Under the pieces are notes generated by a model. That model was not told the DNA's origin. It worked only from the letters and a program-made list of their open reading frames with translations, and searched no databases. The position numbers and the translations under genes were made by a program. This document shows positions 51,185 to 60,033 of a stretch of 64,000 bases of DNA, piece after piece. The stretch is taken from sequence record MK373778.1, one strand, 5' to 3'. Position 1 is the stretch's first letter; the number at the start of each line of letters is the position of its first letter. The stretch is from Escherichia phage vB_EcoM_WFbE185.

Positions 51185-52144
51185 TTATGATTTTAACGCA
51201 TTCATTGCGTTAAAAAGTTTAGAATACTGCAACTGGAGATTCGTTACAACACTTTGAGCATCACGAAGCTTAGCTTGTGCTTTGTCAAGTTCAACAGACA
51301 GTTGGTCCATAGTGGCCTTGATTTGATTGTAATGGTAATCTTCGGCCGGAAGAAGGTCATTATAAACATTTAGTTTTACTGCAGACAGTTTGCACACATT
51401 TGGCAAACCTTTAAACATTGATTTAGCCGAAGTAGAATAAGCACTTAGGACTTCGGCTTGTTCAATTGGGGTCCCAGTAAGCGATGATTCAAACAATGCA
51501 TTTTCCTTTTTAAGATTTTGATAGTATTCAGAGTCTTTGTGCCACCATGGCGCAGGAACCTTTTTACCAATAGATACACGTGCCTGGATAGCGATATGGC
51601 CTTTATTCTTGATAGGGTTGATAATATTAAGCTCGCGAGAATAAATTGCTTTAATCTGGTGGATATTATCACCTAACACTTCCAACGCTTGGTGAAATAC
51701 ACGAGCAACGTTATCATTCTTAGGTTTATACGTAAGAGTGAACTCGTTCTCACTGATAACCATGATTTCTAACTTATCGTAAGTATATTTCAAATGTTTC
51801 ATGTTAATTGCTTGAGGACGAATACGAGAAGCAATGGCCATCAGATTGTTAAGGTTATTTCTGAACTGTTTAGCAAAATATTGTCCATAACCGCCAATGC
51901 AAAAATTACGAAGTTTCTGTTTGGCCAATAAACGGCTGAACTCGCCATTTTTAATGAACTCTTTAACGGGTGTGTTAGTAACGCATTCAAATTGAGTAAA
52001 CTTACGAGAATTAATCCCATAATACGAACAGATTTCCTCAATCTCTTCAGGAGTCTTTACAGGCATACGGATAGGATTAGGTCCTGGAGTATATGCGTTC
52101 GAGGTAAATTCTTTGATAAGTTCTCTACGTGTAATAAAAGCCAT
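51185..52144 (-). CDS. hypothetical protein (319 aa) with C-terminal coiled coil
   Basis: C-terminal MDQLSVELDKAQAKLRDAQSVVTNLQLQY. Confidence 0.5.
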   Translation of the reverse strand: MAFITRRELIKEFTSNAYTPGPNPIRMPVKTPEEIEEICSYYGINSRKFTQFECVTNTPVKEFIKNGEFSRLLAKQKLRNFCIGGYGQYFAKQFRNNLNNLMAIASRIRPQAINMKHLKYTYDKLEIMVISENEFTLTYKPKNDNVARVFHQALEVLGDNIHQIKAIYSRELNIINPIKNKGHIAIQARVSIGKKVPAPWWHKDSEYYQNLKKENALFESSLTGTPIEQAEVLSAYSTSAKSMFKGLPNVCKLSAVKLNVYNDLLPAEDYHYNQIKATMDQLSVELDKAQAKLRDAQSVVTNLQLQYSKLFNAMNALKS

Positions 52145-52170
52145 TTTATATTCCTCATGTTGAAAAATTT

Positions 52171-52199
52171 ATTATACTCCAACCATCCTTGGTTGTACA
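52171..52199 (-). promoter_or_regulatory. early promoter with spacer hairpin (third copy; -35 TGTACA)
   Basis: Shares ttatactccaaccatccttggttgta with the 8911 and 51151 elements. Confidence 0.5.
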
Positions 52200-53195
52200 T
52201 CATTCCTTAAGAAGTTTTACTACTTGAATAAGATTAGCTCGTTCTGTTTTATTTTTACCGTTTAAGCCTGCTAATCGTGAGATTTCATCGTCAGTCTGCT
52301 GAATAGTTACATTAAGTTCGTTAATCAAAGCTTCAAAGTATTTGATTTGCTCAGCATGTTTTGATTCAAATTTCTGAACTGGAATAACGTCTTGGTTTAG
52401 TTCATCAATAAGGTCTTTAAGAGCATCTTCTTGGTTGATATCATATTCAACTTCTTTTATTTCTTCAACAAGCTCGTCTTTATATCTAACGTCTTTTAGT
52501 CCTGGTGCTGGTCCTGAAATCTCTTCTTTAAGAGTACAAACATACCCAATACGGTATCCAATGCCGTCTCGCTTGATATCAACTTCGTCGATAAATCCAC
52601 AATGTTTAAGACCAGAGCCGATTAGGTCAAAATATCCTTGACGTCGTCCTTCAAACGTTACACGAACTACTAAGACAGTTTTGCCTGCAACCTTTTGAAG
52701 CTCACATTTATAAAAGTCAGTTGAACCTGAATAACTTGGATGAGTTTTAAAGTTCATCTGACGATCTAGGCCCATTTGTAAGCGTGCTGTTACGGCCATA
52801 AAACGTGTTTGGTTCTCGTTAAGATGAGCAACAATCCATTTCAAAGGCATTTTACACTGTTCACGGCCGAACAAATCAGTACGTCCTAGATTACGCAGGA
52901 TGTTGTTAGAGTTAATCATCGACAGAACGTTAAGTTTATTCAGCGCGCTGAAGATTCCATCAGCCATTGATTTTCCATAACCTTTACACGCTTTAATAAG
53001 TGCTCGCGGCAGATTAGTATAGATTTCAGACGGCATATGAAAATCAAATTTACTAGTCAGTAATTGATGAACTTGGATAGCAATTTGTTCATAATTAAGT
53101 GCCCTGCGATCATTATGGTCTTTAAACCATACTTTAATCTGTGAAGCACATAAACCGTTAATTTCATGTTTTACCGCATCAGATGTAATGCTCAT
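52200..53195 (-). CDS. hypothetical protein (331 aa) with C-terminal coiled coil
   Basis: C-terminal IKYFEALINELNVTIQQTDDEISRLAG. Confidence 0.5.
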   Translation of the reverse strand: MSITSDAVKHEINGLCASQIKVWFKDHNDRRALNYEQIAIQVHQLLTSKFDFHMPSEIYTNLPRALIKACKGYGKSMADGIFSALNKLNVLSMINSNNILRNLGRTDLFGREQCKMPLKWIVAHLNENQTRFMAVTARLQMGLDRQMNFKTHPSYSGSTDFYKCELQKVAGKTVLVVRVTFEGRRQGYFDLIGSGLKHCGFIDEVDIKRDGIGYRIGYVCTLKEEISGPAPGLKDVRYKDELVEEIKEVEYDINQEDALKDLIDELNQDVIPVQKFESKHAEQIKYFEALINELNVTIQQTDDEISRLAGLNGKNKTERANLIQVVKLLKE

Positions 53196-53257
53196 AACTA
53201 TTTCCTCAGATTGAATTGGAACTCAAAACCATTATAACCCGTCCTTGGGTAAAGCGT

Positions 53258-53785
53258 TTATGCGTGAACCGTCTTTAAACGTTCTTCAAATTTCCGAAGA
53301 GTACTAATACGTTCTGCTTTCTGTTTTGTATAGTTTGCAATACGTTCTGAAGTGAGAGCGTATCGTTCGTTTACTGTTTCTTTCATGAAGTCAGGGATTT
53401 CACGAGAAGCTTTAATTTCATCAAACTTATCGAGTACTGCCTGGTCTTCAGCAATTAAATTTTCGTACATCTCGATATCTTTCTTGATGAAGTCGATATC
53501 TTCCTGGGTTACTTTGGATAAACGAGATGCCTTATCCTTTTTGTACTGCTCGTTAGTTTCACGAGACCAGAATAATGTACGTTTTTTGTTAGTGTTTTTG
53601 TAGACTTCCACAATTCCAACTGAATCGATGATAACAATCCAATTCCAGCGAGATTTGAAAATCTGACCTCCGTCCACGGTAATCTCGTTACCATAAGCAA
53701 TGTCATTAAAGAACTTACTTTGTGCTTCAGATTTAAATTTACCGTCGTTATAATTTACCAGGTTGAAAATATCTTTAGCGTTCAT
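53258..53785 (-). CDS. hypothetical protein (175 aa), coiled-coil rich
   Basis: ORF downstream of promoter 53813-53841. Confidence 0.5.
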   Translation of the reverse strand: MNAKDIFNLVNYNDGKFKSEAQSKFFNDIAYGNEITVDGGQIFKSRWNWIVIIDSVGIVEVYKNTNKKRTLFWSRETNEQYKKDKASRLSKVTQEDIDFIKKDIEMYENLIAEDQAVLDKFDEIKASREIPDFMKETVNERYALTSERIANYTKQKAERISTLRKFEERLKTVHA

Positions 53786-53812
53786 GTTTTACCTCCAGTA
53801 GTTGATAGGTCT

Positions 53813-53841
53813 ATAATAACATAACCATAGACCTTGTAAAC
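53813..53841 (-). promoter_or_regulatory. early-type promoter (-35 GTTTAC, 17 bp, TGT-TATTAT)
   Basis: Same consensus block as 20308-20336; GGTCTAT/ATAGACC inverted repeat. Confidence 0.55.
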
Positions 53842-53843
53842 AA

Positions 53844-54131
53844 CTAAAAGAAACTTTTTTCGGTATTTTTTCCACTGAACCAAACAGACTTCGGGATTTT
53901 TTGTAATTTTTCAGATTTAAGTTTCTCTTCCTGTTCTTTCTTATATACACCCTTGTCGTACTGGAGCATCTCTATGGCATTCTTTTGCAAACGATCTAAG
54001 GTAATTAAGGCTTTAGTTTTTCCTTTCAAGGAAGAGTCCTGGCGAACCTCCTCGCTATATTGCATTGTAGAACTAACCATACGATGAGCATAGAGTTCGA
54101 CTGCGGCTTTAATTTTTTGCATAAAATCCAT
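53844..54131 (-). CDS. hypothetical protein (95 aa)
   Basis: ORF. Confidence 0.4.
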   Translation of the reverse strand: MDFMQKIKAAVELYAHRMVSSTMQYSEEVRQDSSLKGKTKALITLDRLQKNAIEMLQYDKGVYKKEQEEKLKSEKLQKIPKSVWFSGKNTEKSFF

Positions 54132-54269
54132 AACATATCCTCTTTGATTTGTACATCATTATTTTTAAATATTTCTATGCCCTCAGTAGGTTCCAGGTGT
54201 CCTTCTTTGAGGTAAGCCATATGATTATTCATCTTTATGGCTTTTGTTACCTCAGAACTTCCTATAAGC

Positions 54270-55250
54270 TTATTTCAGTAAAGTTACTTCAGAGATTTCC
54301 TCCCAGCCATCTTTATCAGTTGAAATAAAATCTGCTACATAAAGAGCGGTACGTAATGATACATTGCGAAGACGAGATACATTAGCCTTCATCCAGGACA
54401 ATGCTTTGTACGTTTCTGCATCCGTCAGGCCACGTTTCTGCATCATGTCAGTAGATAATATTACATCTTCAACTCGAACCATAATCTCTTCATTAGAGTG
54501 TACTCCAAGATCGAGATATACTGAACGAGATACTAAAGCTTGAAGGTGTGGAGCAAGTTTCGAACCCCGTTCTAACTCTTTATCGATATCAACGTTTGTA
54601 ATGAAAACGATAGTACCTTCAAACTCAAATTCTTTATCGATACCCTTATCATCAAGATAAGATGATGCAGTGCTCCAGCAAACTTTGCGTTTATCACCGG
54701 TATCTAATGCTGCTTTAAGAAGGTTCAAGATGTCCATATCCGAGAATACGTCAACGTCGTCGATTAAGAGAACGCTGTCTGCATCACGGTTGAGCCAAAG
54801 TTGTTCGTAAAGGCCAATACCTGAGATTTTACCATTAATGCTTTTGTATTTGATGAAACCATTATCATTAGCATTATTAAGTGCTTTATCCAGAGAATAC
54901 GTCTTACCAATACCGGCTGCACCTGAAATAATGAGTGAACGAATTTTGCCATCGATAATACCATTAGTCATCATGTTCATTACTTTAAAGCGTTTGTTGA
55001 TACGAGTTTTCATATCTTCAGTGCTTTCAACAACTGCAACTGGTGATGTCTCAGCTCCTTCCATTATGATGTCTGATTTGAAGACCCATACTCCACGTTC
55101 AGAACCATCGATCATAACGAAAATTTTACCATCACCTAAGTGGGAACATTCAGGATTAAGCTTTGCCGGGAACCATGTCTTTGTGGCAACATAAGAACCA
55201 GAGATTTCGTTATTACGATAGATACCTTTTTTGATTTGAACGTTGAACAT
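54270..55250 (-). CDS. P-loop NTPase (AAA-like), start set at ATG Met5
   Basis: Walker A GAAGIGKT and Walker B LLIDDVDV; the track start is TTG. Confidence 0.55.
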   Translation of the reverse strand: MFNVQIKKGIYRNNEISGSYVATKTWFPAKLNPECSHLGDGKIFVMIDGSERGVWVFKSDIIMEGAETSPVAVVESTEDMKTRINKRFKVMNMMTNGIIDGKIRSLIISGAAGIGKTYSLDKALNNANDNGFIKYKSINGKISGIGLYEQLWLNRDADSVLLIDDVDVFSDMDILNLLKAALDTGDKRKVCWSTASSYLDDKGIDKEFEFEGTIVFITNVDIDKELERGSKLAPHLQALVSRSVYLDLGVHSNEEIMVRVEDVILSTDMMQKRGLTDAETYKALSWMKANVSRLRNVSLRTALYVADFISTDKDGWEEISEVTLLK

Positions 55251-55289
55251 TTTATTCTCCAAATTTACTCATTTCGTTTCGATAGGTCT

Positions 55290-55318
55290 ATAATAACATG
55301 TTTAAAGCAAAAGTAAAC
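55290..55318 (-). promoter_or_regulatory. early-type promoter (-35 GTTTAC, 17 bp, TGT-TATTAT)
   Basis: Consensus GATAGGTCTATAATAACA block. Confidence 0.55.
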
Positions 55319-55320
55319 AA

Positions 55321-55539
55321 TTATTTGCGACGAGATTTTTTGGTAAGAGGTTGAAAGAACACTGCTTTACCGGCAGGAGTCAAAGTGACTCGTAATGCAT
55401 TACCGATTCCCAAGGATGCTTTAACCAGACCTTTAGATTTCAGTTCACCGAATGCTTGACGTTGGTCTGCATTACGAGTGTTAACCATAAGACCTTTATC
55501 ACCAGCTTCACGAATCATTTCTAGCATTTTGGTTTTCAT
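55321..55539 (-). CDS. small putative DNA-binding protein (72 aa, start moved)
   Basis: Internal ATG with AGGAGA SD downstream of promoter 55571-55599; basic C-terminal tail. Confidence 0.4.
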   Translation of the reverse strand: MKTKMLEMIREAGDKGLMVNTRNADQRQAFGELKSKGLVKASLGIGNALRVTLTPAGKAVFFQPLTKKSRRK

Positions 55540-55570
55540 TTTGTTTTCTCCTCTTGTTTTGATAGGTCCT

Positions 55571-55599
55571 ATAATAACATATCCTAAAAGCATGTACAC
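55571..55599 (-). promoter_or_regulatory. early-type promoter (-35 GTGTAC, 17 bp, TGT-TATTAT)
   Basis: Consensus block GATAGGTCCTATAATAACA. Confidence 0.5.
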
Positions 55600-55620
55600 T
55601 ACTTTTTAAAAATATTTTGA

Positions 55621-55646
55621 CCCCCTAAAAGGGCCCGAAGGCCCTT
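55621..55646 (-). terminator. intrinsic terminator (AAGGGCC-UUCG-GGCCCUU + UUUUAGGGGG)
   Basis: GC stem with UUCG loop immediately after the nucleotidyltransferase gene stop. Confidence 0.55.
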
Positions 55647-55647
55647 A

Positions 55648-56637
55648 TCATTTATAGTATGAATTATGATTTTCGAGATAGACTTGCTCAAGGAAATCAT
55701 CCCAGAAACTCATATCTACTTTTTGTTGCATACCGTTCTTAGCGGCTTGTTCTGACGCGTGTTCAACTTGGACAACGATATCTTCTAGGAATTCTTGTAC
55801 AGTTTTAAACGTATGTTTACCAAGCTTAACATCGAGAATAAATGGAGCATCTTGAAGTGGGTAAACCAGGTCGCCGGTTTTGTAAATTTCCAATAATTGA
55901 AGTCCACCACGACATGCATGACTCAATGCTTTCCAGTCAATACCTTCGTTAGCTTCTGCCTTACGAGCACGTTCACCATAGTTCTCTTCCAGTTTAACCA
56001 GGATGGCATTGAACTCTTTATTGGTTAACGTGTCTTGGAATTTACGGTCTAACAGATTATAGAATGTTTGCTTACCTGTTTTCTCATTTTCGGTTTCAAC
56101 CCACGAAGCAAATTCACCTATAGGCAGAACATTCTTCATATGTGATAAACGAATTACTGCACCGTTATCAAAGTATCGTCCCCATTCATTAGAACGTTTA
56201 AGGGCTTGACGAAGAACAGCCAGTCGAGAACCCTTGACGCCATATTTAGAAGCTTGCTTACGGACATACCCTAAATAAGATTTCATGTTAGTGGTATAGA
56301 AACGAGACCTGTTATCTTGAATATACTTCCATACATAAGGCAAATCAGATTTAACTACTAGACTTGGTGGAGTGTGAAGCATATCTAATGCGACGGTTTC
56401 ACCATCAGCAGCTAGTTTAAAGAAATATTTGAGACTATACAACTCATGGTCCACGTCGTCTTTTGTGTTCTTAGAAGATGTGTTATTCGTGTTCTTGCTC
56501 ATATGTTCTTTAACGTTACCGGTCAAGATATCACGAGCATGAGGGACATAAATTTCTTTAAAATCGACGTCAGATTCAGGAGTAGACGTTCCATAAAGGT
56601 GGCTACCAAAGTAGCCTTTCATAATTGTTTTCATCAT
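55648..56637 (-). CDS. polymerase-beta-superfamily nucleotidyltransferase (329 aa)
   Basis: N-terminal hG[GS]-x10-DhD motif (YFGSHLYGTSTPESDVDF). Confidence 0.55.
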   Translation of the reverse strand: MMKTIMKGYFGSHLYGTSTPESDVDFKEIYVPHARDILTGNVKEHMSKNTNNTSSKNTKDDVDHELYSLKYFFKLAADGETVALDMLHTPPSLVVKSDLPYVWKYIQDNRSRFYTTNMKSYLGYVRKQASKYGVKGSRLAVLRQALKRSNEWGRYFDNGAVIRLSHMKNVLPIGEFASWVETENEKTGKQTFYNLLDRKFQDTLTNKEFNAILVKLEENYGERARKAEANEGIDWKALSHACRGGLQLLEIYKTGDLVYPLQDAPFILDVKLGKHTFKTVQEFLEDIVVQVEHASEQAAKNGMQQKVDMSFWDDFLEQVYLENHNSYYK

Positions 56638-57107
56638 TTAGCCTTATATTCAAGAGTAGGACAGACTTTTTCTTTACGAGCTTTAAGGTATTCACCTATT
56701 AATGATTTCTTACGTTCAATAGGCTCAAGTCCATTTTTAATTCGTTCTTGGTTTTGCGCAATGAGCTCAATTTCTTTATAATACTTCCGCTCTCTATATA
56801 AGTCGATTAGCCACGGTATGCCTAATACTAAAACTATAGAAATACCAACACATAATGCAATGAATAAAACACCTACACCAATTGAGGCCGGAACCAATGA
56901 CCATAAACTACTAAAGACAAAGAATTTAGTTAAAATTTCATGGCCAACGATTGTGGCCGCTGCTAAAATCGCAAATCCAATAATCGAAACAAACAATACC
57001 GGGAGAAACGTTTTCCAAAAATAAGCACACAACGTTTTCGGACGATTCCATGTACTATTAAACGCGGCATAAATTTTAAAGTGCCAAGAGTTTTCATTGA
57101 TAATCAT
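56634..57107 (-). CDS. membrane protein (157 aa)
   Basis: Three or four hydrophobic segments. Confidence 0.5.
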   Translation of the reverse strand: MIINENSWHFKIYAAFNSTWNRPKTLCAYFWKTFLPVLFVSIIGFAILAAATIVGHEILTKFFVFSSLWSLVPASIGVGVLFIALCVGISIVLVLGIPWLIDLYRERKYYKEIELIAQNQERIKNGLEPIERKKSLIGEYLKARKEKVCPTLEYKAK

Positions 57108-57116
57108 AATAATTCC

Positions 57117-57647
57117 TTATTTCAAAGTTGGGATAATAGAATCGAGATAAGCTTTAAGAGCAACTGCTTCATCTTTGTCTAATGTAACGATATGTTGACG
57201 AAGGTCATCAATTTGGCGAATAACTACAACATCGCCATCTTCATAAGAAGGATTAACGCCTAGGACCGTTGTATAGTCAGGGCGGTCCTGATTTGTAATA
57301 AAAGCATTACGGCATTTAGCCCATTGAAGTTTAGCCTTTTTGGCTGTTTCAGATTCCATTAATTCTTTCACCTTAGTGACAAACGTTTTCCAATTATTAA
57401 TAGAAAGGCATTCATCTTCTGTTTCGATATTAACCCCACTATAAAGACCGTGATAAAACCGAACTTGAAGGTCTTCATCGATGTTAATTACAGATGCATG
57501 GCCGGGCGGATTGAGTTTCAAAATCTTGTCCAGTTCCATAGGAAGAATAGTAACAGAATCATCTTCTTGTGTCAGAACATACACATAACCACGTTTTTCG
57601 ATAGACAAATCACCAAACAACTCGGTTGTTTCAATTACGGTTTTCAT
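57117..57647 (-). CDS. hypothetical protein (start set at ATG Met5)
   Basis: The track start is TTG; TAATATG junction with the upstream small ORF. Confidence 0.5.
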   Translation of the reverse strand: MKTVIETTELFGDLSIEKRGYVYVLTQEDDSVTILPMELDKILKLNPPGHASVINIDEDLQVRFYHGLYSGVNIETEDECLSINNWKTFVTKVKELMESETAKKAKLQWAKCRNAFITNQDRPDYTTVLGVNPSYEDGDVVVIRQIDDLRQHIVTLDKDEAVALKAYLDSIIPTLK

Positions 57648-57648
57648 A

Positions 57649-57828
57649 TTATTCACCAATTAAAGTTTCAACAAAATTCACCAAATCATTCAGACAAGCA
57701 TCAACCTGATTTTCATAAAAGTCTTCGTTATCATTTACTGCATGATAAGCTACATCATTCAAATCTGAATCGGCTTCACGTAAGTTACGGATAAGTTCCA
57801 TCAATTTATTAGCTTGTTCACGGGTCAT
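57649..57828 (-). CDS. small acidic protein (59 aa), not in ORF track
   Basis: MTREQANKLMELIRNLREADSDLNDVAYHAV...; ATGA coupling with the upstream 36-aa ORF. Confidence 0.35.
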   Translation of the reverse strand: MTREQANKLMELIRNLREADSDLNDVAYHAVNDNEDFYENQVDACLNDLVNFVETLIGE

Positions 57829-57935
57829 TTTACCATACTCGTTTCAATAAGATTCACTATGCCGTTTACCATGTTATAAGTAAACATCGGATAATTGTAT
57901 TGTACTACAACATAAGCGATAAGCAAAAGTTTCAT
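57825..57935 (-). CDS. small hydrophobic peptide (36 aa), not in ORF track
   Basis: MKLLLIAYVVVQYNYPMF...; GGAG SD; downstream of promoter 57964-57993. Confidence 0.3.
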   Translation of the reverse strand: MKLLLIAYVVVQYNYPMFTYNMVNGIVNLIETSMVK

Positions 57936-57963
57936 TTTGTTCTCCGTTCGTTTTGGTAGGACT

Positions 57964-57993
57964 ACTATAACATAATCCTACCAAGATGTAAAC
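57964..57993 (-). promoter_or_regulatory. early-type promoter (-35 GTTTAC, -10 TATAGT) within 9-bp inverted repeat TTGGTAGGA/TCCTACCAA
   Basis: Consensus family; the 3' arm overlaps the SD region. Confidence 0.5.
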
Positions 57994-58226
57994 TACCGAT
58001 TGTGTTTTAAATGTTGATAAAGTTCTTCAACTTGTTTAGGGTCCAAAACAATTAGGTCATTTTCTTGGCGAAGATAAATCCATCCCTTATCACCAGGGCC
58101 ATTTTTACAAAACATCACCACCGTATCATCATCTTCAGCGCTTTCAGGTAAAAGTTCAAGTACACCGTCTTCAGATTTTCCAGTATAATCGTAAAGCATA
58201 ATATCCTCACATAATCTCGTTAACAT
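57993..58226 (-). CDS. hypothetical acidic protein (77 aa)
   Basis: ORF. Confidence 0.4.
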   Translation of the reverse strand: MLTRLCEDIMLYDYTGKSEDGVLELLPESAEDDDTVVMFCKNGPGDKGWIYLRQENDLIVLDPKQVEELYQHLKHNR

Positions 58227-58386
58227 ACATTTGCAATTCGGTGTGGGTGTCAGCCATCTTTTTCATTGCCTTATTGATATCAATATCGCCATCTTCGCAC
58301 CCATGGGCATTCTCCCAATCAGATACGGCATTAGCGTACTCTTCAATCAAAAACATTAACTTAGAAATTTTTTCTTTACGTGACAT
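58207..58386 (-). CDS. hypothetical small protein (start moved to Met14)
   Basis: ATG with GAGGAG SD downstream of promoter 58414-58442. Confidence 0.4.
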   Translation of the reverse strand: MSRKEKISKLMFLIEEYANAVSDWENAHGCEDGDIDINKAMKKMADTHTELQMYVNEIM

Positions 58387-58413
58387 AACGTTCTCCTCTA
58401 GTAAGTAAAGACT

Positions 58414-58442
58414 ACTATAACACAACCTGCGGAGAAGTAAAC
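58414..58442 (-). promoter_or_regulatory. early-type promoter (-35 GTTTAC, 17 bp, -10 TATAGT)
   Basis: Consensus family, sequence GTTTACTTCTCCGCAGG...TATAGT. Confidence 0.5.
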
Positions 58443-58457
58443 TGATAGATACAAAAA

Positions 58458-58481
58458 AGCCCCGACCTTTCGGAAGGGGCT
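58458..58481 (-). terminator. intrinsic terminator (GC-rich hairpin GCCCC...GGGGC + U6)
   Basis: 5-bp GC stem enclosing a small inner stem-loop, followed by UUUUUUGU on minus-strand RNA. Confidence 0.5.
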
Positions 58482-58487
58482 AGTAAA

Positions 58488-58688
58488 TTAGATAGATGTA
58501 GGCTCTAATTTTATTTTCATGAACTCGGCAAATTGTCTGGCAGTTTTTATGCCTTGTTCATGACATTCAAATGCATCATCACAGGGGCTATTTTTGTAAT
58601 GCTTTGCCATATACTTATAGAATTTTTCAGAATTCTCGACATTTTGAATTTCAAACAAAGTATATACGTTTTTAATACCTGATTCCAT
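58488..58688 (-). CDS. hypothetical small protein (66 aa)
   Basis: ORF. Confidence 0.4.
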   Translation of the reverse strand: MESGIKNVYTLFEIQNVENSEKFYKYMAKHYKNSPCDDAFECHEQGIKTARQFAEFMKIKLEPTSI

Positions 58689-58710
58689 AAAGTTATCAAA
58701 ATATGGGTCA

Positions 58711-58791
58711 ATATGTGCAGTACCAACGATAGGAGTTGTTGCTGCAAAAAAACCCCAGCATCGCTATGACAGCTATCGCTCTTAAGGCCAT
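58711..58791 (-). CDS. very small hydrophobic peptide (26 aa) with perfect SD AGGAGG
   Basis: MALRAIAVIAMLGFFCSNNSYRWYCTY; locally GC-richer sequence than surroundings. Confidence 0.25.
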
Positions 58792-58803
58792 ATAGGCCTC
58801 CTG

Positions 58804-59016
58804 TTAATTTTGGCCAGTATTTATTTTTCGCCTTTGGACGGCCTTAACATCTGCGAGGTATTTTTCCAGCTTGCGCTTGCGTGTATAATCAGCTTTAGAA
58901 CCAGTTTGACGAATATCCTCGTTTAAATGAGAAATAGAATGTCCTAATTCTCTTCGGATTTCGTCCAATTGGGTTACAGTAAGATTACGAAGTTGTCTTT
59001 CGTTTAATTGCTGCAT
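58804..59016 (-). CDS. hypothetical basic protein (70 aa) under a late promoter
   Basis: TATAAATA box 23 nt upstream of the ATG. Confidence 0.45.
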
Positions 59017-59038
59017 ATACCTCTTGGTTAGATATTAG

Positions 59039-59046
59039 TATTTATA
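59039..59046 (-). promoter_or_regulatory. late promoter box TATAAATA (overlaps tk stop codon)
   Basis: Exact TATAAATA on minus strand. Confidence 0.55.
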
Positions 59047-59623
59047 ACAACCCTGTCAAATCGTTCCAATGCTTCCGGCATAATGACACATATCTATCGG
59101 TATCACCAATTTCAATTTGACTGCCATCTGTAATTGGAAGTCCGTCTTCCGTGACTCTAGCTACCATTGTGGCCTTTTTACCACAATGACAGACACCTTT
59201 AAGTTCAACAAGCTTATCGGCAATAGCCATTAATGCTTGAGAACCTTCAAATAGATTACCTTTAAAATCTGTTCGTAGTCCATATGCCATTACCGGCACA
59301 TTGTACACGTCAACAATACGACTAAGTTGATACACCTTTTCAGTAGTTAAGAACTGAGCTTCGTCAACAAATACACAGTGAATATCCTTTTGTGCTGCAG
59401 CCCATTTATAGAATTCAAAGATATCCATGTCTTTTGTAATTATATTGGCGTCCTTACGAATACCAATACGAGAGACTATTTCACCTTTTGAATCGCGAGT
59501 ATCAATAGCCGGTTTAAGAACTAATACACCCATGCCACGTTCTTTATAGTTATGTGCGGCAGTAAGTAATGAAGCAGACTTACCAGCGTTCATAGCAGCA
59601 TATGTAAAAATTAAACTAGCCAT
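59042..59623 (-). CDS. tk: thymidine kinase
   Basis: 193 aa; MASLIFTYAAMNAGKSASLL and CHCGKKA...CRKHW closely match T4 Tk. Confidence 0.9.
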   Translation of the reverse strand: MASLIFTYAAMNAGKSASLLTAAHNYKERGMGVLVLKPAIDTRDSKGEIVSRIGIRKDANIITKDMDIFEFYKWAAAQKDIHCVFVDEAQFLTTEKVYQLSRIVDVYNVPVMAYGLRTDFKGNLFEGSQALMAIADKLVELKGVCHCGKKATMVARVTEDGLPITDGSQIEIGDTDRYVSLCRKHWNDLTGLL

Positions 59624-59632
59624 AAGAGTCCT

Positions 59633-59815
59633 TTATAGTGAATTCACATAGTCAATGAGTTCTTGTTCTTTCCTGTCAAATGATTCCATCAATGCTTGAT
59701 ATTCTTCGTCTGTTAAAGGAGCATATTCATCGTACGCATTGGTGGCTGCTTGCTCATCCAATAGGTCATGGATAAGTTCGAACAGTTTAGTTTTCTCTTC
59801 TTTAGTCAATTTCAT
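59633..59815 (-). CDS. hypothetical acidic protein (60 aa)
   Basis: ORF. Confidence 0.4.
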   Translation of the reverse strand: MKLTKEEKTKLFELIHDLLDEQAATNAYDEYAPLTDEEYQALMESFDRKEQELIDYVNSL

Positions 59816-60033
59816 TTAGGTTCACCTTCTTTAACGAAATCTGGGTAAGGGTAAAATCCTGAGTAAAACCCTTCACCTTTATGATTGCTACAACCTTTGT
59901 TCGAACAGTAACACCAATAATCAAAATCACAAGCCATTTCGTCATTGCATAAAGCAAAAACTACAGGCCATTCGCATTTTTCGCATTTAGCACCTGTAAG
60001 AATTTTTGTTTGGCTCATAACAATGGTTCCCAA
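59812..60033 (-). CDS. Cys-rich small protein (73 aa), possible zinc binding
   Basis: CEKCEW...C..CDFDYWCYCSNKGCSNH. Confidence 0.4.
   Translation of the reverse strand: MGTIVMSQTKILTGAKCEKCEWPVVFALCNDEMACDFDYWCYCSNKGCSNHKGEGFYSGFYPYPDFVKEGEPK

Follow-up and report, generated by a model that had tools for sequence, protein, structure and literature searches.

What does the nucleotidyltransferase gene on the minus strand of Escherichia phage vB_EcoM_WFbE185 do for the phage that carries it? The gene occupies positions 55648..56637 of the 64,000-nucleotide stretch analysed here (sequence record MK373778.1; hereafter, the window). A first-pass annotation had described its product as a polymerase-beta (Pol-beta)-type nucleotidyltransferase (NTase), with tRNA repair, nucleotide signalling or anti-defence as possible roles and a substrate not predictable from sequence alone. 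We find that it is the RB69-type orthologue of T4 NrdC.11, and a divergent long subtype of RlaP (PF10127), a family of Pol-beta nucleotidyltransferases. This membership makes the substrate more predictable than had been supposed, as bacterial members of the family add nucleoside monophosphates (NMPs) to RNA 3'-OH ends and homologues of the phage protein lie in RNA-repair operons. The function that we favour, with moderate confidence, is that of a two-metal, template-independent RNA 3'-end nucleotidyltransferase, filling gaps of 1-2 nucleotides in nuclease-damaged tRNA and acting between PseT and Rnl1. Of the three roles first suggested, tRNA repair is thus the best supported, while the models for CD-NTase signalling match nothing.

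Identity of the gene and its family

The coding sequence runs from ATG to TGA on the minus strand through 329 uninterrupted codons (stop at 55648-55650 in the list of open reading frames, ORFs), just as first annotated. Two start codons are possible, the first ATG giving 329 residues and the second 328, the latter being the start used in most database entries for NrdC.11. Neither of the two antisense ORFs within the gene (43 and 111 residues, plus strand) found any support. Over a 1.9-kb stretch around the gene, the DNA shows 99.2% identity to phage OLB35 and 94.5% to RB69, in which the gene is annotated nrdC.11, and the source phage is an RB69-like T-even phage of the genus Mosigvirus. A GenBank protein named "putative nucleotidyltransferase" is 100% identical to the product, and T4 NrdC.11 is 77.4% identical over its full length. 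The orthologues in T4 (AAD42629; synonym tk.-11) and RB69 (AAP76005) share the position of the gene between mobD.1 and nrdC.10, which, together with a full-length match to the "nucleotidyltransferase" family PHROG 388 (E = 2.4e-125, residues 1-329), places the protein in the orthologous group of T4 NrdC.11. The group is large: homologues are present in 1520 phage records, and 3171 cluster representatives in a library of 1.84 billion proteins match at E <= 1e-3.

The family assignment rests on a Pfam match to PF10127 (RlaP) above the gathering threshold (47.4 bits against a cut-off of 23; E = 2.7e-12), which aligns residues 7-207 with profile positions 23-207 of 249. Among the database matches listed, all 120 of 120 homologues carry a precomputed match to the same family. 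The first-pass annotation was right in kind, but it did not recognise T4 nrdC.11 and missed the specific family. Orthologues of nrdC.11 had been assigned to the nucleotidyltransferase group COG3541 by 2006 (PMC1524935). The gene is thus already known and annotated, and the RlaP family has been biochemically characterised in bacteria; with an annotation standing since 2006, a named family and published family biochemistry, it carries little weight as a discovery. What is new here is the linkage of the NrdC.11 subtype to RNA-repair genes in bacteria and other phages. Dozens of phage GenBank records label the NrdC.11 protein 'thioredoxin'; the protein contains no thioredoxin domain, and the label is an annotation error, apparently propagated from the gene name nrdC.x.

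Catalytic residues, fold and structural relatives

The N-terminal Pol-beta nucleotidyltransferase core comprises residues 1-100 (56338..56637, minus strand), as delimited by conservation, hhalign and the structural model. It contains G11-S12 (56602-56607, codons GGT AGC) and D23-V24-D25 (56563-56571, codons GAC GTC GAT), separated by exactly 10 residues, so that the GS-x10-DVD signature is read correctly from the sequence. A third catalytic residue, D63 (56449-56451), is indicated by hhalign, conservation and the model, and a further conserved D85 (56383-56385) by hhalign and conservation. We computed conservation over 142-145 homologues of 33-56% identity, among which G11, S12, Y132 and R243 are invariant, D23 and D25 are 99% conserved, and D63 and D85 fall within 95-99%. 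The residues conserved in at least 90% of them are D23, D25, N57, D61, D63, D85, K131, R138, Y220, G221, R223, D234, K236 and H240. Because of this conservation and the PF10127 score, the GS-x10-DVD signature is no chance match.

Comparison with canonical RlaP by hhalign (92% probability) brings the catalytic residues into register, pairing GS with GS, D23/D25 with D42/D44, D63 with the invariant D81 and D85 with the invariant E103. NrdC.11 thus possesses the full Pol-beta catalytic set, namely hG[GS], [DE]x[DE] and a third carboxylate on the neighbouring strand. An AlphaFold2 model, built with the homologue alignment, has a predicted local distance difference test score (pLDDT) of 94.4 and a predicted template modelling score (pTM) of 0.87; in it, D23 and D25 stand at the beginning of strand 24-31 and D63 on strand 62-68 of the N-terminal sheet. 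The assignment to the Pol-beta superfamily with an intact Asp pair is borne out, since D23 and D25 are conserved and aligned with canonical RlaP. The pair, on whose presence in a reliable alignment or structure the first-pass annotation had made its reading depend, was found there, together with D63, which had gone unseen.

Beyond the core, a middle region (residues 101-206; 56020..56337, minus strand) is delimited by the Pfam match, which extends to residue 207, by the model and by conservation. Its helices hold the conserved Y124, Q128, K131, G136 and R138 as well as the invariant Y132, and the model places a three-stranded beta insertion at residues 177-201. The C-terminal domain (residues 207-329; 55651..56019, minus strand) is specific to the NrdC.11 subtype by conservation, hhalign and the model, in which the middle part is helical and the domain (206-328) is also helical, ending in a long helix, 309-328. 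It carries a motif of near-invariant columns, Y220-G-x-R-A ... G-x-D234-W-K-A-x-S-H240-A-x-R243 (55909-55980, minus strand). The two-domain layout of the model, an NTase followed by a C-terminal helical domain, is the layout described for the PfRlaP crystal structure, where the domains enclose a cleft and the final helix folds back against the NTase domain (PMC12776372). Pseudomonas RlaP shares with NrdC.11 the Pfam family, the GS / DxD / D set and, going by the model, the domain order. In contrast to canonical RlaP, NrdC.11 has the C-terminal motif YGxRA...DWKAxSHAxR and the beta insertion, is about 60 residues longer than the canonical genes found here (~267 residues), and aligns with them by hhalign over only its first 87 columns (~90 residues). 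Judged by these sequence comparisons, NrdC.11 is a distinct long subtype within the RlaP family.

Sequence searches with NrdC.11, its family profile and the canonical-RlaP profile returned no meaningful match in a copy of the PDB that lacks the PfRlaP structure, and Foldseek searches of the PDB gave weak matches only. The best of these is kanamycin nucleotidyltransferase (E = 3e-3, template modelling score (TM) 0.33-0.40), followed by a structural-genomics NTase, HalB, LinB and AadA. Kanamycin nucleotidyltransferase, or ANT(4'), combines an NTase with a helical domain as NrdC.11 does, and raises the question of whether the phage enzyme might nucleotidylate a protein or a small molecule, in the manner of aminoglycoside NTases, MNT antitoxins or AMPylating effectors, and in this way alter a factor or metabolite of the host as the phage takes over. 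The position of the gene in a host-takeover (hyperplastic) region of genes with unassigned functions would suit such a role, as would the NAD-salvage genes near homologues in some phage contigs (NAMPT in 5 loci, NUDIX in 2). However, identity to the kanamycin enzyme is 9-11% at TM 0.3-0.4, its substrates are small molecules and it has no genomic or family link to NrdC.11; the structural matches that bear on this reading are weak (TM 0.24-0.33) and generic for the fold. The MNT and NTP_transf_2 models score below threshold, no HEPN partner lies nearby, the bacterial gene neighbours are RNA enzymes, and Pseudomonas RlaP leaves E. coli proteins unlabelled (PMC12776372). We regard this alternative as improbable.

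Of the CCA-adding, cGAS/DncV-like and MNT-type enzymes with which the first-pass annotation had proposed a structural comparison, none matched by its Pfam, PADLOC or NCBIfam models, and NCBIfam and PADLOC searches with NrdC.11 gave no significant family. CD-NTases (cGAS/DncV-like, SMODS) have no Pfam match at E <= 1, no PADLOC match and no representative among the structural matches. The class II CCA-adding and poly(A) polymerase models likewise have no Pfam match at E <= 1, the single fold match being a very weak one to Cid1 at E = 0.88. An MNT antitoxin was rejected on scores (NTP_transf_2, 13.3 bits against 21; MntA, 12.9 against 60), on length (329 residues, not ~100-150) and on the missing HEPN neighbour, no HEPN-family Pfam match being present among the neighbours of nrdC.11.

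In a viral structure library (BFVD), the model matches related NTases in many phages, giant viruses and baculovirus HE65 proteins, including Agrotis segetum granulovirus ORF132 and proteins of Klosneuvirus and Terrestrivirus. The giant-virus matches measure 500-1080 residues, are named exonuclease or Endonuclease V, and are probably fusions. These model-based matches hint at a wider viral use of the NrdC.11-type NTase module.

Linkage to RNA repair and the proposed function

The genomic company of NrdC.11-type genes outside the T-even phages bears most directly on substrate. From a 26-sequence alignment we collected 80 bacterial and archaeal loci with full-length relatives of 32-52% identity, of which 70 yielded the NTase gene on crude ORF calling, BLAST single-linkage clustering and Pfam assignment of cluster representatives; some contigs from metagenome-assembled genomes (MAGs) in this set may be phage DNA. 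Within five genes of the NTase gene, at least one of Pnkp ligase, Hen1, Ro60, RtcB, T4-type polynucleotide kinase-phosphatase (PNK) or canonical RlaP occurs in 31 of the 70 loci, and a ligase, kinase, Hen1, Ro60 or RtcB in 15. Individually, these are the Pnkp kinase-phosphatase-ligase (6 loci, mostly directly upstream), Ro60/TROVE-vWA (6), Hen1 (5), RtcB (5) and T4-type PNK (4). A plasmid of Asticcacaulis carries the operon Hen1 - Pnkp - NrdC.11-like (39% identity) - RlaP (L086:6001-7790), and in Deferribacter an RtcB gene lies 2.5 kb upstream of the NrdC.11-type gene. Canonical RlaP and NrdC.11-type homologues are both linked to RNA ligase, RtcB and Pnkp operons.

The most frequent partner is canonical RlaP itself (267 residues; PF10127, E = 3.5e-71), found within five genes in 22 of the 70 loci and directly downstream on the same strand in 21, so that the NrdC.11 type in bacteria often stands beside a canonical RlaP and not in place of one. 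The tandem of a long NrdC.11-type and a short canonical gene (~267 residues) occurs among loci L093-L162 (for example L156:5070-5870 and L147:6981-7787), and sometimes lies within Hen1-Pnkp or RtcB/Ro60 operons. Such pairing suggests that the two paralogous NTases have distinct roles or form a heteromer.

Among viruses, 13 divergent loci (L003-L005 and ten metagenomic contigs, 39-48% identity) carry repair or tRNA-end genes within 10 kb of the homologue, in counts that include some loci twice. RnlA-like or other RNA ligases are found in 4 loci, PseT-like kinases also in 4, and RtcB and Ro60 in 1 each; in Sinorhizobium phage phiM7, the homologue has a ligase gene of this kind on either side. 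CCA-enzyme-like genes of COG0617 lie near 5 viral homologues, in Vibrio phage 1.084.O immediately upstream and overlapping. An association with RNA ligases and end-healing enzymes was seen in 15 of the 70 bacterial and archaeal loci, in the Asticcacaulis operon and in these 13 viral loci, but not at the locus in the window or in T4. Neither in the window nor within +-10 kb of the homologue at 83 viral loci did the canonical-RlaP hidden Markov model (HMM) detect a second RlaP gene. Other neighbours within four genes of divergent homologues are NAD-salvage genes (NAMPT/NAPRTase in 5 proteins, NUDIX in 2) and HD-domain genes (viral loci L055, L056, L069, L081, L084 and others), which may represent counter-defence clustering or the shared ancestry of the contigs.

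What the family does on RNA comes from a preprint by Carruthers, Fatma and Huang (2025), according to which RlaP of P. fluorescens and P. aeruginosa adds 1-2 NMPs, or deoxynucleoside monophosphates (dNMPs), to RNA 3'-OH ends (PMC12776372). Among E. coli macromolecules, the Pseudomonas enzyme labels RNA alone, with no labelling of protein; it is inactive on DNA and on 3'-phosphate ends and prefers Mn2+ (PMC12776372). Given a tRNA mimic cleaved at the anticodon, it favours the 5' half, and it partly restores aminoacylation of a tRNA that is short of one anticodon-loop nucleotide (PMC12776372). The same work places T4 NrdC.11 in PF10127, in cluster 5 of a sequence similarity network (SSN), with the Pseudomonas enzymes in cluster 1a, and RnlA/Rnl1 requires 3'-OH/5'-P ends, exactly those that the RlaP reaction leaves (PMC12776372). 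By excising the wobble base, RloC would defeat the repair of tRNA by phages, according to a proposal of 2008 (PMC2610378), and RlaP of jumbo phages has been proposed to replace the nucleotides removed by RloC before ligation (PMC7824862).

Set beside the catalytic residues of NrdC.11, these observations suggest a mechanism in which D23, D25 and D63 would coordinate two divalent metals (probably Mn2+). NrdC.11 would then transfer one or two NMPs from nucleoside triphosphates (NTPs), template-free, to the 3'-OH of a broken RNA, the likeliest substrate being the 5' half left when a host defence nuclease cleaves a tRNA within the anticodon loop. PseT would first turn the 3' phosphate into a 3'-OH, the addition by NrdC.11 would replace the nucleotides removed by nucleases such as RloC, and RNA ligase 1 (RnlA) would seal the tRNA afterwards. 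We infer the shared chemistry with RlaP, the natural substrate and the cooperation of NrdC.11 with PseT and RnlA, both of which RB69 encodes.

The same chemistry could serve intact RNA ends rather than anticodon-loop gaps, for instance by restoring trimmed CCA ends on tRNAs of the phage or the host, or by adding tails that alter the stability of mRNAs and small RNAs. Pseudomonas RlaP does label rRNA-sized and full-length tRNA-sized RNA and extends single-stranded RNA (PMC12776372), and the five viral loci with COG0617 genes of the CCA-adding or poly(A) polymerase type are in keeping with such tailing, as are the tRNA genes owned by T-even phages, though ARAGORN finds none within the window. 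Class II CCA-adding enzymes and poly(A) polymerases (COG0617) are Pol-beta NTases that, like the RlaP family, add nucleotides to RNA 3'-OH ends template-independently. They differ in the domain beyond the catalytic core, and NrdC.11 matches none of their Pfam models. The published RlaP reaction, which halts at 1-2 nucleotides with little base specificity and none for CCA, is ill-suited to CCA rebuilding or tailing, and in bacterial operons the gene is accompanied by enzymes that heal and seal RNA ends (Pnkp, Hen1, RtcB), implying internal breaks. Tailing or end rebuilding therefore appears unlikely, the least so among the alternatives that we weighed.

Several observations count against gap filling in tRNA as the function of NrdC.11. 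Its kinship to canonical RlaP is distant, the canonical-RlaP HMM finding it only at E = 4e-4, and its last ~120 residues, with their own invariant motif, do not align with canonical RlaP in hhalign. The biochemistry comes from one preprint that has not been peer-reviewed, and was obtained in sub-cluster 1a rather than in cluster 5, to which NrdC.11 belongs (PMC12776372). No recognised repair neighbour is present in 39 of the 70 bacterial loci, and the frequent side-by-side occurrence of NrdC.11-type and canonical genes argues against functional redundancy. No RNA-repair gene adjoins nrdC.11 in the window or in T4; RB69 does encode pseT and rnlA, but these lie ~80 kb from nrdC.11. Synteny of nrdC.11 with a membrane-protein gene and nrdC.10 in T-even phages is uninformative on RNA and may simply reflect common descent. 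HalB, one of the closest solved structures, is a protein-primed poly-dA synthase and not an RNA-repair enzyme. Finally, the T4 segment nrdC.11-mobD.3 can be deleted in the laboratory (PMC9825161), where its loss is tolerated with no phenotype known.

Transcription unit, neighbouring genes and implications

In the window, nrdC.11 abuts its upstream neighbour without intergenic space. At the ATGATGA junction (56632..56637, minus strand), read directly from the sequence, the start codon or codons of nrdC.11 overlap the upstream TGA, an arrangement that recurs in 8 related viral contigs. Translation of nrdC.11 is probably coupled to that of the upstream gene, and the promoter of its own that the first-pass annotation had granted the gene is not supported, the best promoter-like site upstream lying ~1.3 kb away. 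This candidate promoter of the unit (57964..57992, minus strand; TTTACA-17-TATAGT, TG-extended, 10/12 matches) has the top score of the scan and lies in an intergenic gap. An internal site at 56806-56778 (9/12 matches) was rejected as a promoter of nrdC.11, since it falls within the upstream ORF and does not rise above chance level.

The promoter-like site at 55571..55598 (minus strand; TGTACA-16-TATTAT, a sigma-70-like match) serves, by its position, the next gene, as first proposed for 55571-55599: it lies downstream of the terminator and before a small ORF; a near-identical copy stands at 55317-55290, before nrdC.10. Promoter-like matches occur at chance level in this AT-rich stretch (17 observed against 16.4 expected), so these assignments are based on where the sites lie and on their recurrence rather than on statistics. 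All three early-promoter-like elements (57992-57964, 55598-55571 and 55317-55290) are followed by a leader CCTA(T/C)C(A/G)AAAC and then by a strong Shine-Dalgarno sequence.

Between 57964 and 55646 on the minus strand, the scan found no terminator-like site. As far as these signals can be read from the DNA, nrdC.11 would be the last cistron of an early-type polycistronic unit of ~2.3 kb, in the order 36-residue ORF, tk.1-like gene, mobD.1, membrane-protein gene and nrdC.11. The 36-residue ORF (57825-57935, minus strand, from the ORF list) is hydrophobic (MKLLLIAYVVVQYNYP...), begins just past the promoter-like site and overlaps with its stop the start of the tk.1-like gene (ATGA); no gene is annotated here in RB69. 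The tk.1-like gene (57649-57828, minus strand) belongs to DUF7438 by family match. Downstream of it, mobD.1 (57117-57659, minus strand; ORF list, Pfam) encodes a y05I-like putative transcription factor, matching T4_y05I_N (E = 3e-40) and T4_y05I_C (E = 1e-19), though it is still called 'conserved hypothetical' in the RB69 and T4 records.

The unit is closed by a hairpin at 55621..55646 (minus strand), which the sequence, the predicted fold and the terminator scan agree in presenting as an intrinsic-terminator-like or RNA-stabilising element with a short U-run and a G-run tail. One base past the TGA, the RNA reads AAGGGCC-UUCG-GGCCCUU (55646-55629), then UUAGGGGG, to 55621. The UUCG terminator of the first-pass annotation thus stands as a hairpin directly past the stop; its centroid fold consists of this hairpin alone (-12.6 kcal/mol), and the scan also picks it as a plus-strand site at 55629-55646. 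Two points are weaker: the U-tract has 4 U and then A here against 6 U in T4, and the energy is unremarkable against shuffles of the 66-nucleotide stretch (z = -0.71). T4 and RB69 likewise have a UUCG hairpin directly past the nrdC.11 stop, and at the equal position behind orthologues we found four stems, AAGGGCC in the window and RB69, GGGAGCC in T4, and AAAAGGCC and AAGGAACC in two further lineages, L010 and L011. Four stem sequences around one UUCG loop imply that the stem is maintained by compensatory change. NrdC.11 would thus be expressed as a last cistron, translationally coupled to the membrane-protein gene and closed by the hairpin.

Past the hairpin, the next gene is a small ORF of the RB69ORF102c type (55321-55563, minus strand), followed by nrdC.10 (54270-55262, minus strand; 330 residues, PHROG 1250). 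NrdC.10 has a Walker-A-like GAAGIGKT, and its Pfam matches to AAA/STAND and helix-turn-helix (HTH) families are sub-threshold only; it lies downstream of nrdC.11 in 30 of the 83 viral loci surveyed. T4 differs in having no small ORF between nrdC.11 and nrdC.10, as well as a longer hairpin U-tract. Relative to T4, the small ORF (PHROG 6001) is inserted here with its own promoter copy, and by its sequence the insertion looks like a PeSL-type mobile promoter/stem-loop cassette. PeSL cassettes have been described for T4-type hyperplastic regions, and the stem-loop and early-promoter modules found here match them (PMC4122927). There are no Rfam matches at 52000-60000.

The upstream neighbour, a 157-residue membrane protein of the RB69ORF104c type (56634..57107, minus strand; ORF list, PHROG 944), has about three hydrophobic stretches and ends in a charged tail at its C terminus. 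Its pairing with an NTase recalls the anti-phage system Hailong, in which HalB (PDB 9dbh, 217 residues) primes long poly-dA on its own tyrosine and is partnered by the membrane channel protein HalA (review PMC13434031). NrdC.11 might by analogy be a template-independent polymerase of dNMPs or NMPs, possibly primed on its own tyrosine, whose product acts as a decoy or signal and might keep a Hailong-type DNA-gated channel closed, with the membrane protein as a possible partner. The fold similarity to HalB, the invariance of Y132 and the conservation of three further tyrosines in at least 90% of homologues agree with this, as do the acceptance of dATP by Pseudomonas RlaP (PMC12776372) and the translationally coupled membrane-protein gene, a homologue of which precedes the NTase gene in the same orientation at 38 of 83 viral loci. 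Yet NrdC.11 shares 15% identity with HalB, which neither sequence nor profile searches retrieve, and it has no HalA-type channel gene beside it. Neither NrdC.11 nor the membrane protein matches a PADLOC defence model, and the latter has no Pfam match and resembles no PDB chain in sequence, not even HalA. In T4 the homing endonuclease gene mobD replaces the membrane-protein gene upstream of nrdC.11 (PMC2988022), so that nrdC.11 is kept where the proposed partner is absent; the bacterial homologues, for their part, lie in RNA-repair operons and not beside channel genes. We rejected the membrane protein as a HalA analogue on these grounds, the missing sequence support (PDB, PADLOC) and the absence of the gene from T4. 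A HalB-like activity is thus highly improbable, and we give scarcely any credence to its specific form, in which T-even NrdC.11 would be an oligonucleotide synthase, its product used as a decoy or signal to counter host defences gated by DNA or oligonucleotides, possibly with the membrane protein as a partner.

Gap filling in damaged tRNA accordingly remains the function we favour for NrdC.11. The tandem arrangement of long and short NTases suggests two non-redundant roles, and a one-enzyme model leaves it unexplained. It is possible, if doubtful, that the NrdC.11 type has a role distinct from that of canonical RlaP, as a third enzyme that lets the Pnkp-Rnl1 pathway of T4 reverse the action of nucleotide-excising anticodon nucleases such as RloC. 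T4 is the phage in which RNA repair was discovered, and its RlaP-family gene offers a test case: an enzyme that restores nucleotides would be a phage answer to RloC-type nucleases.

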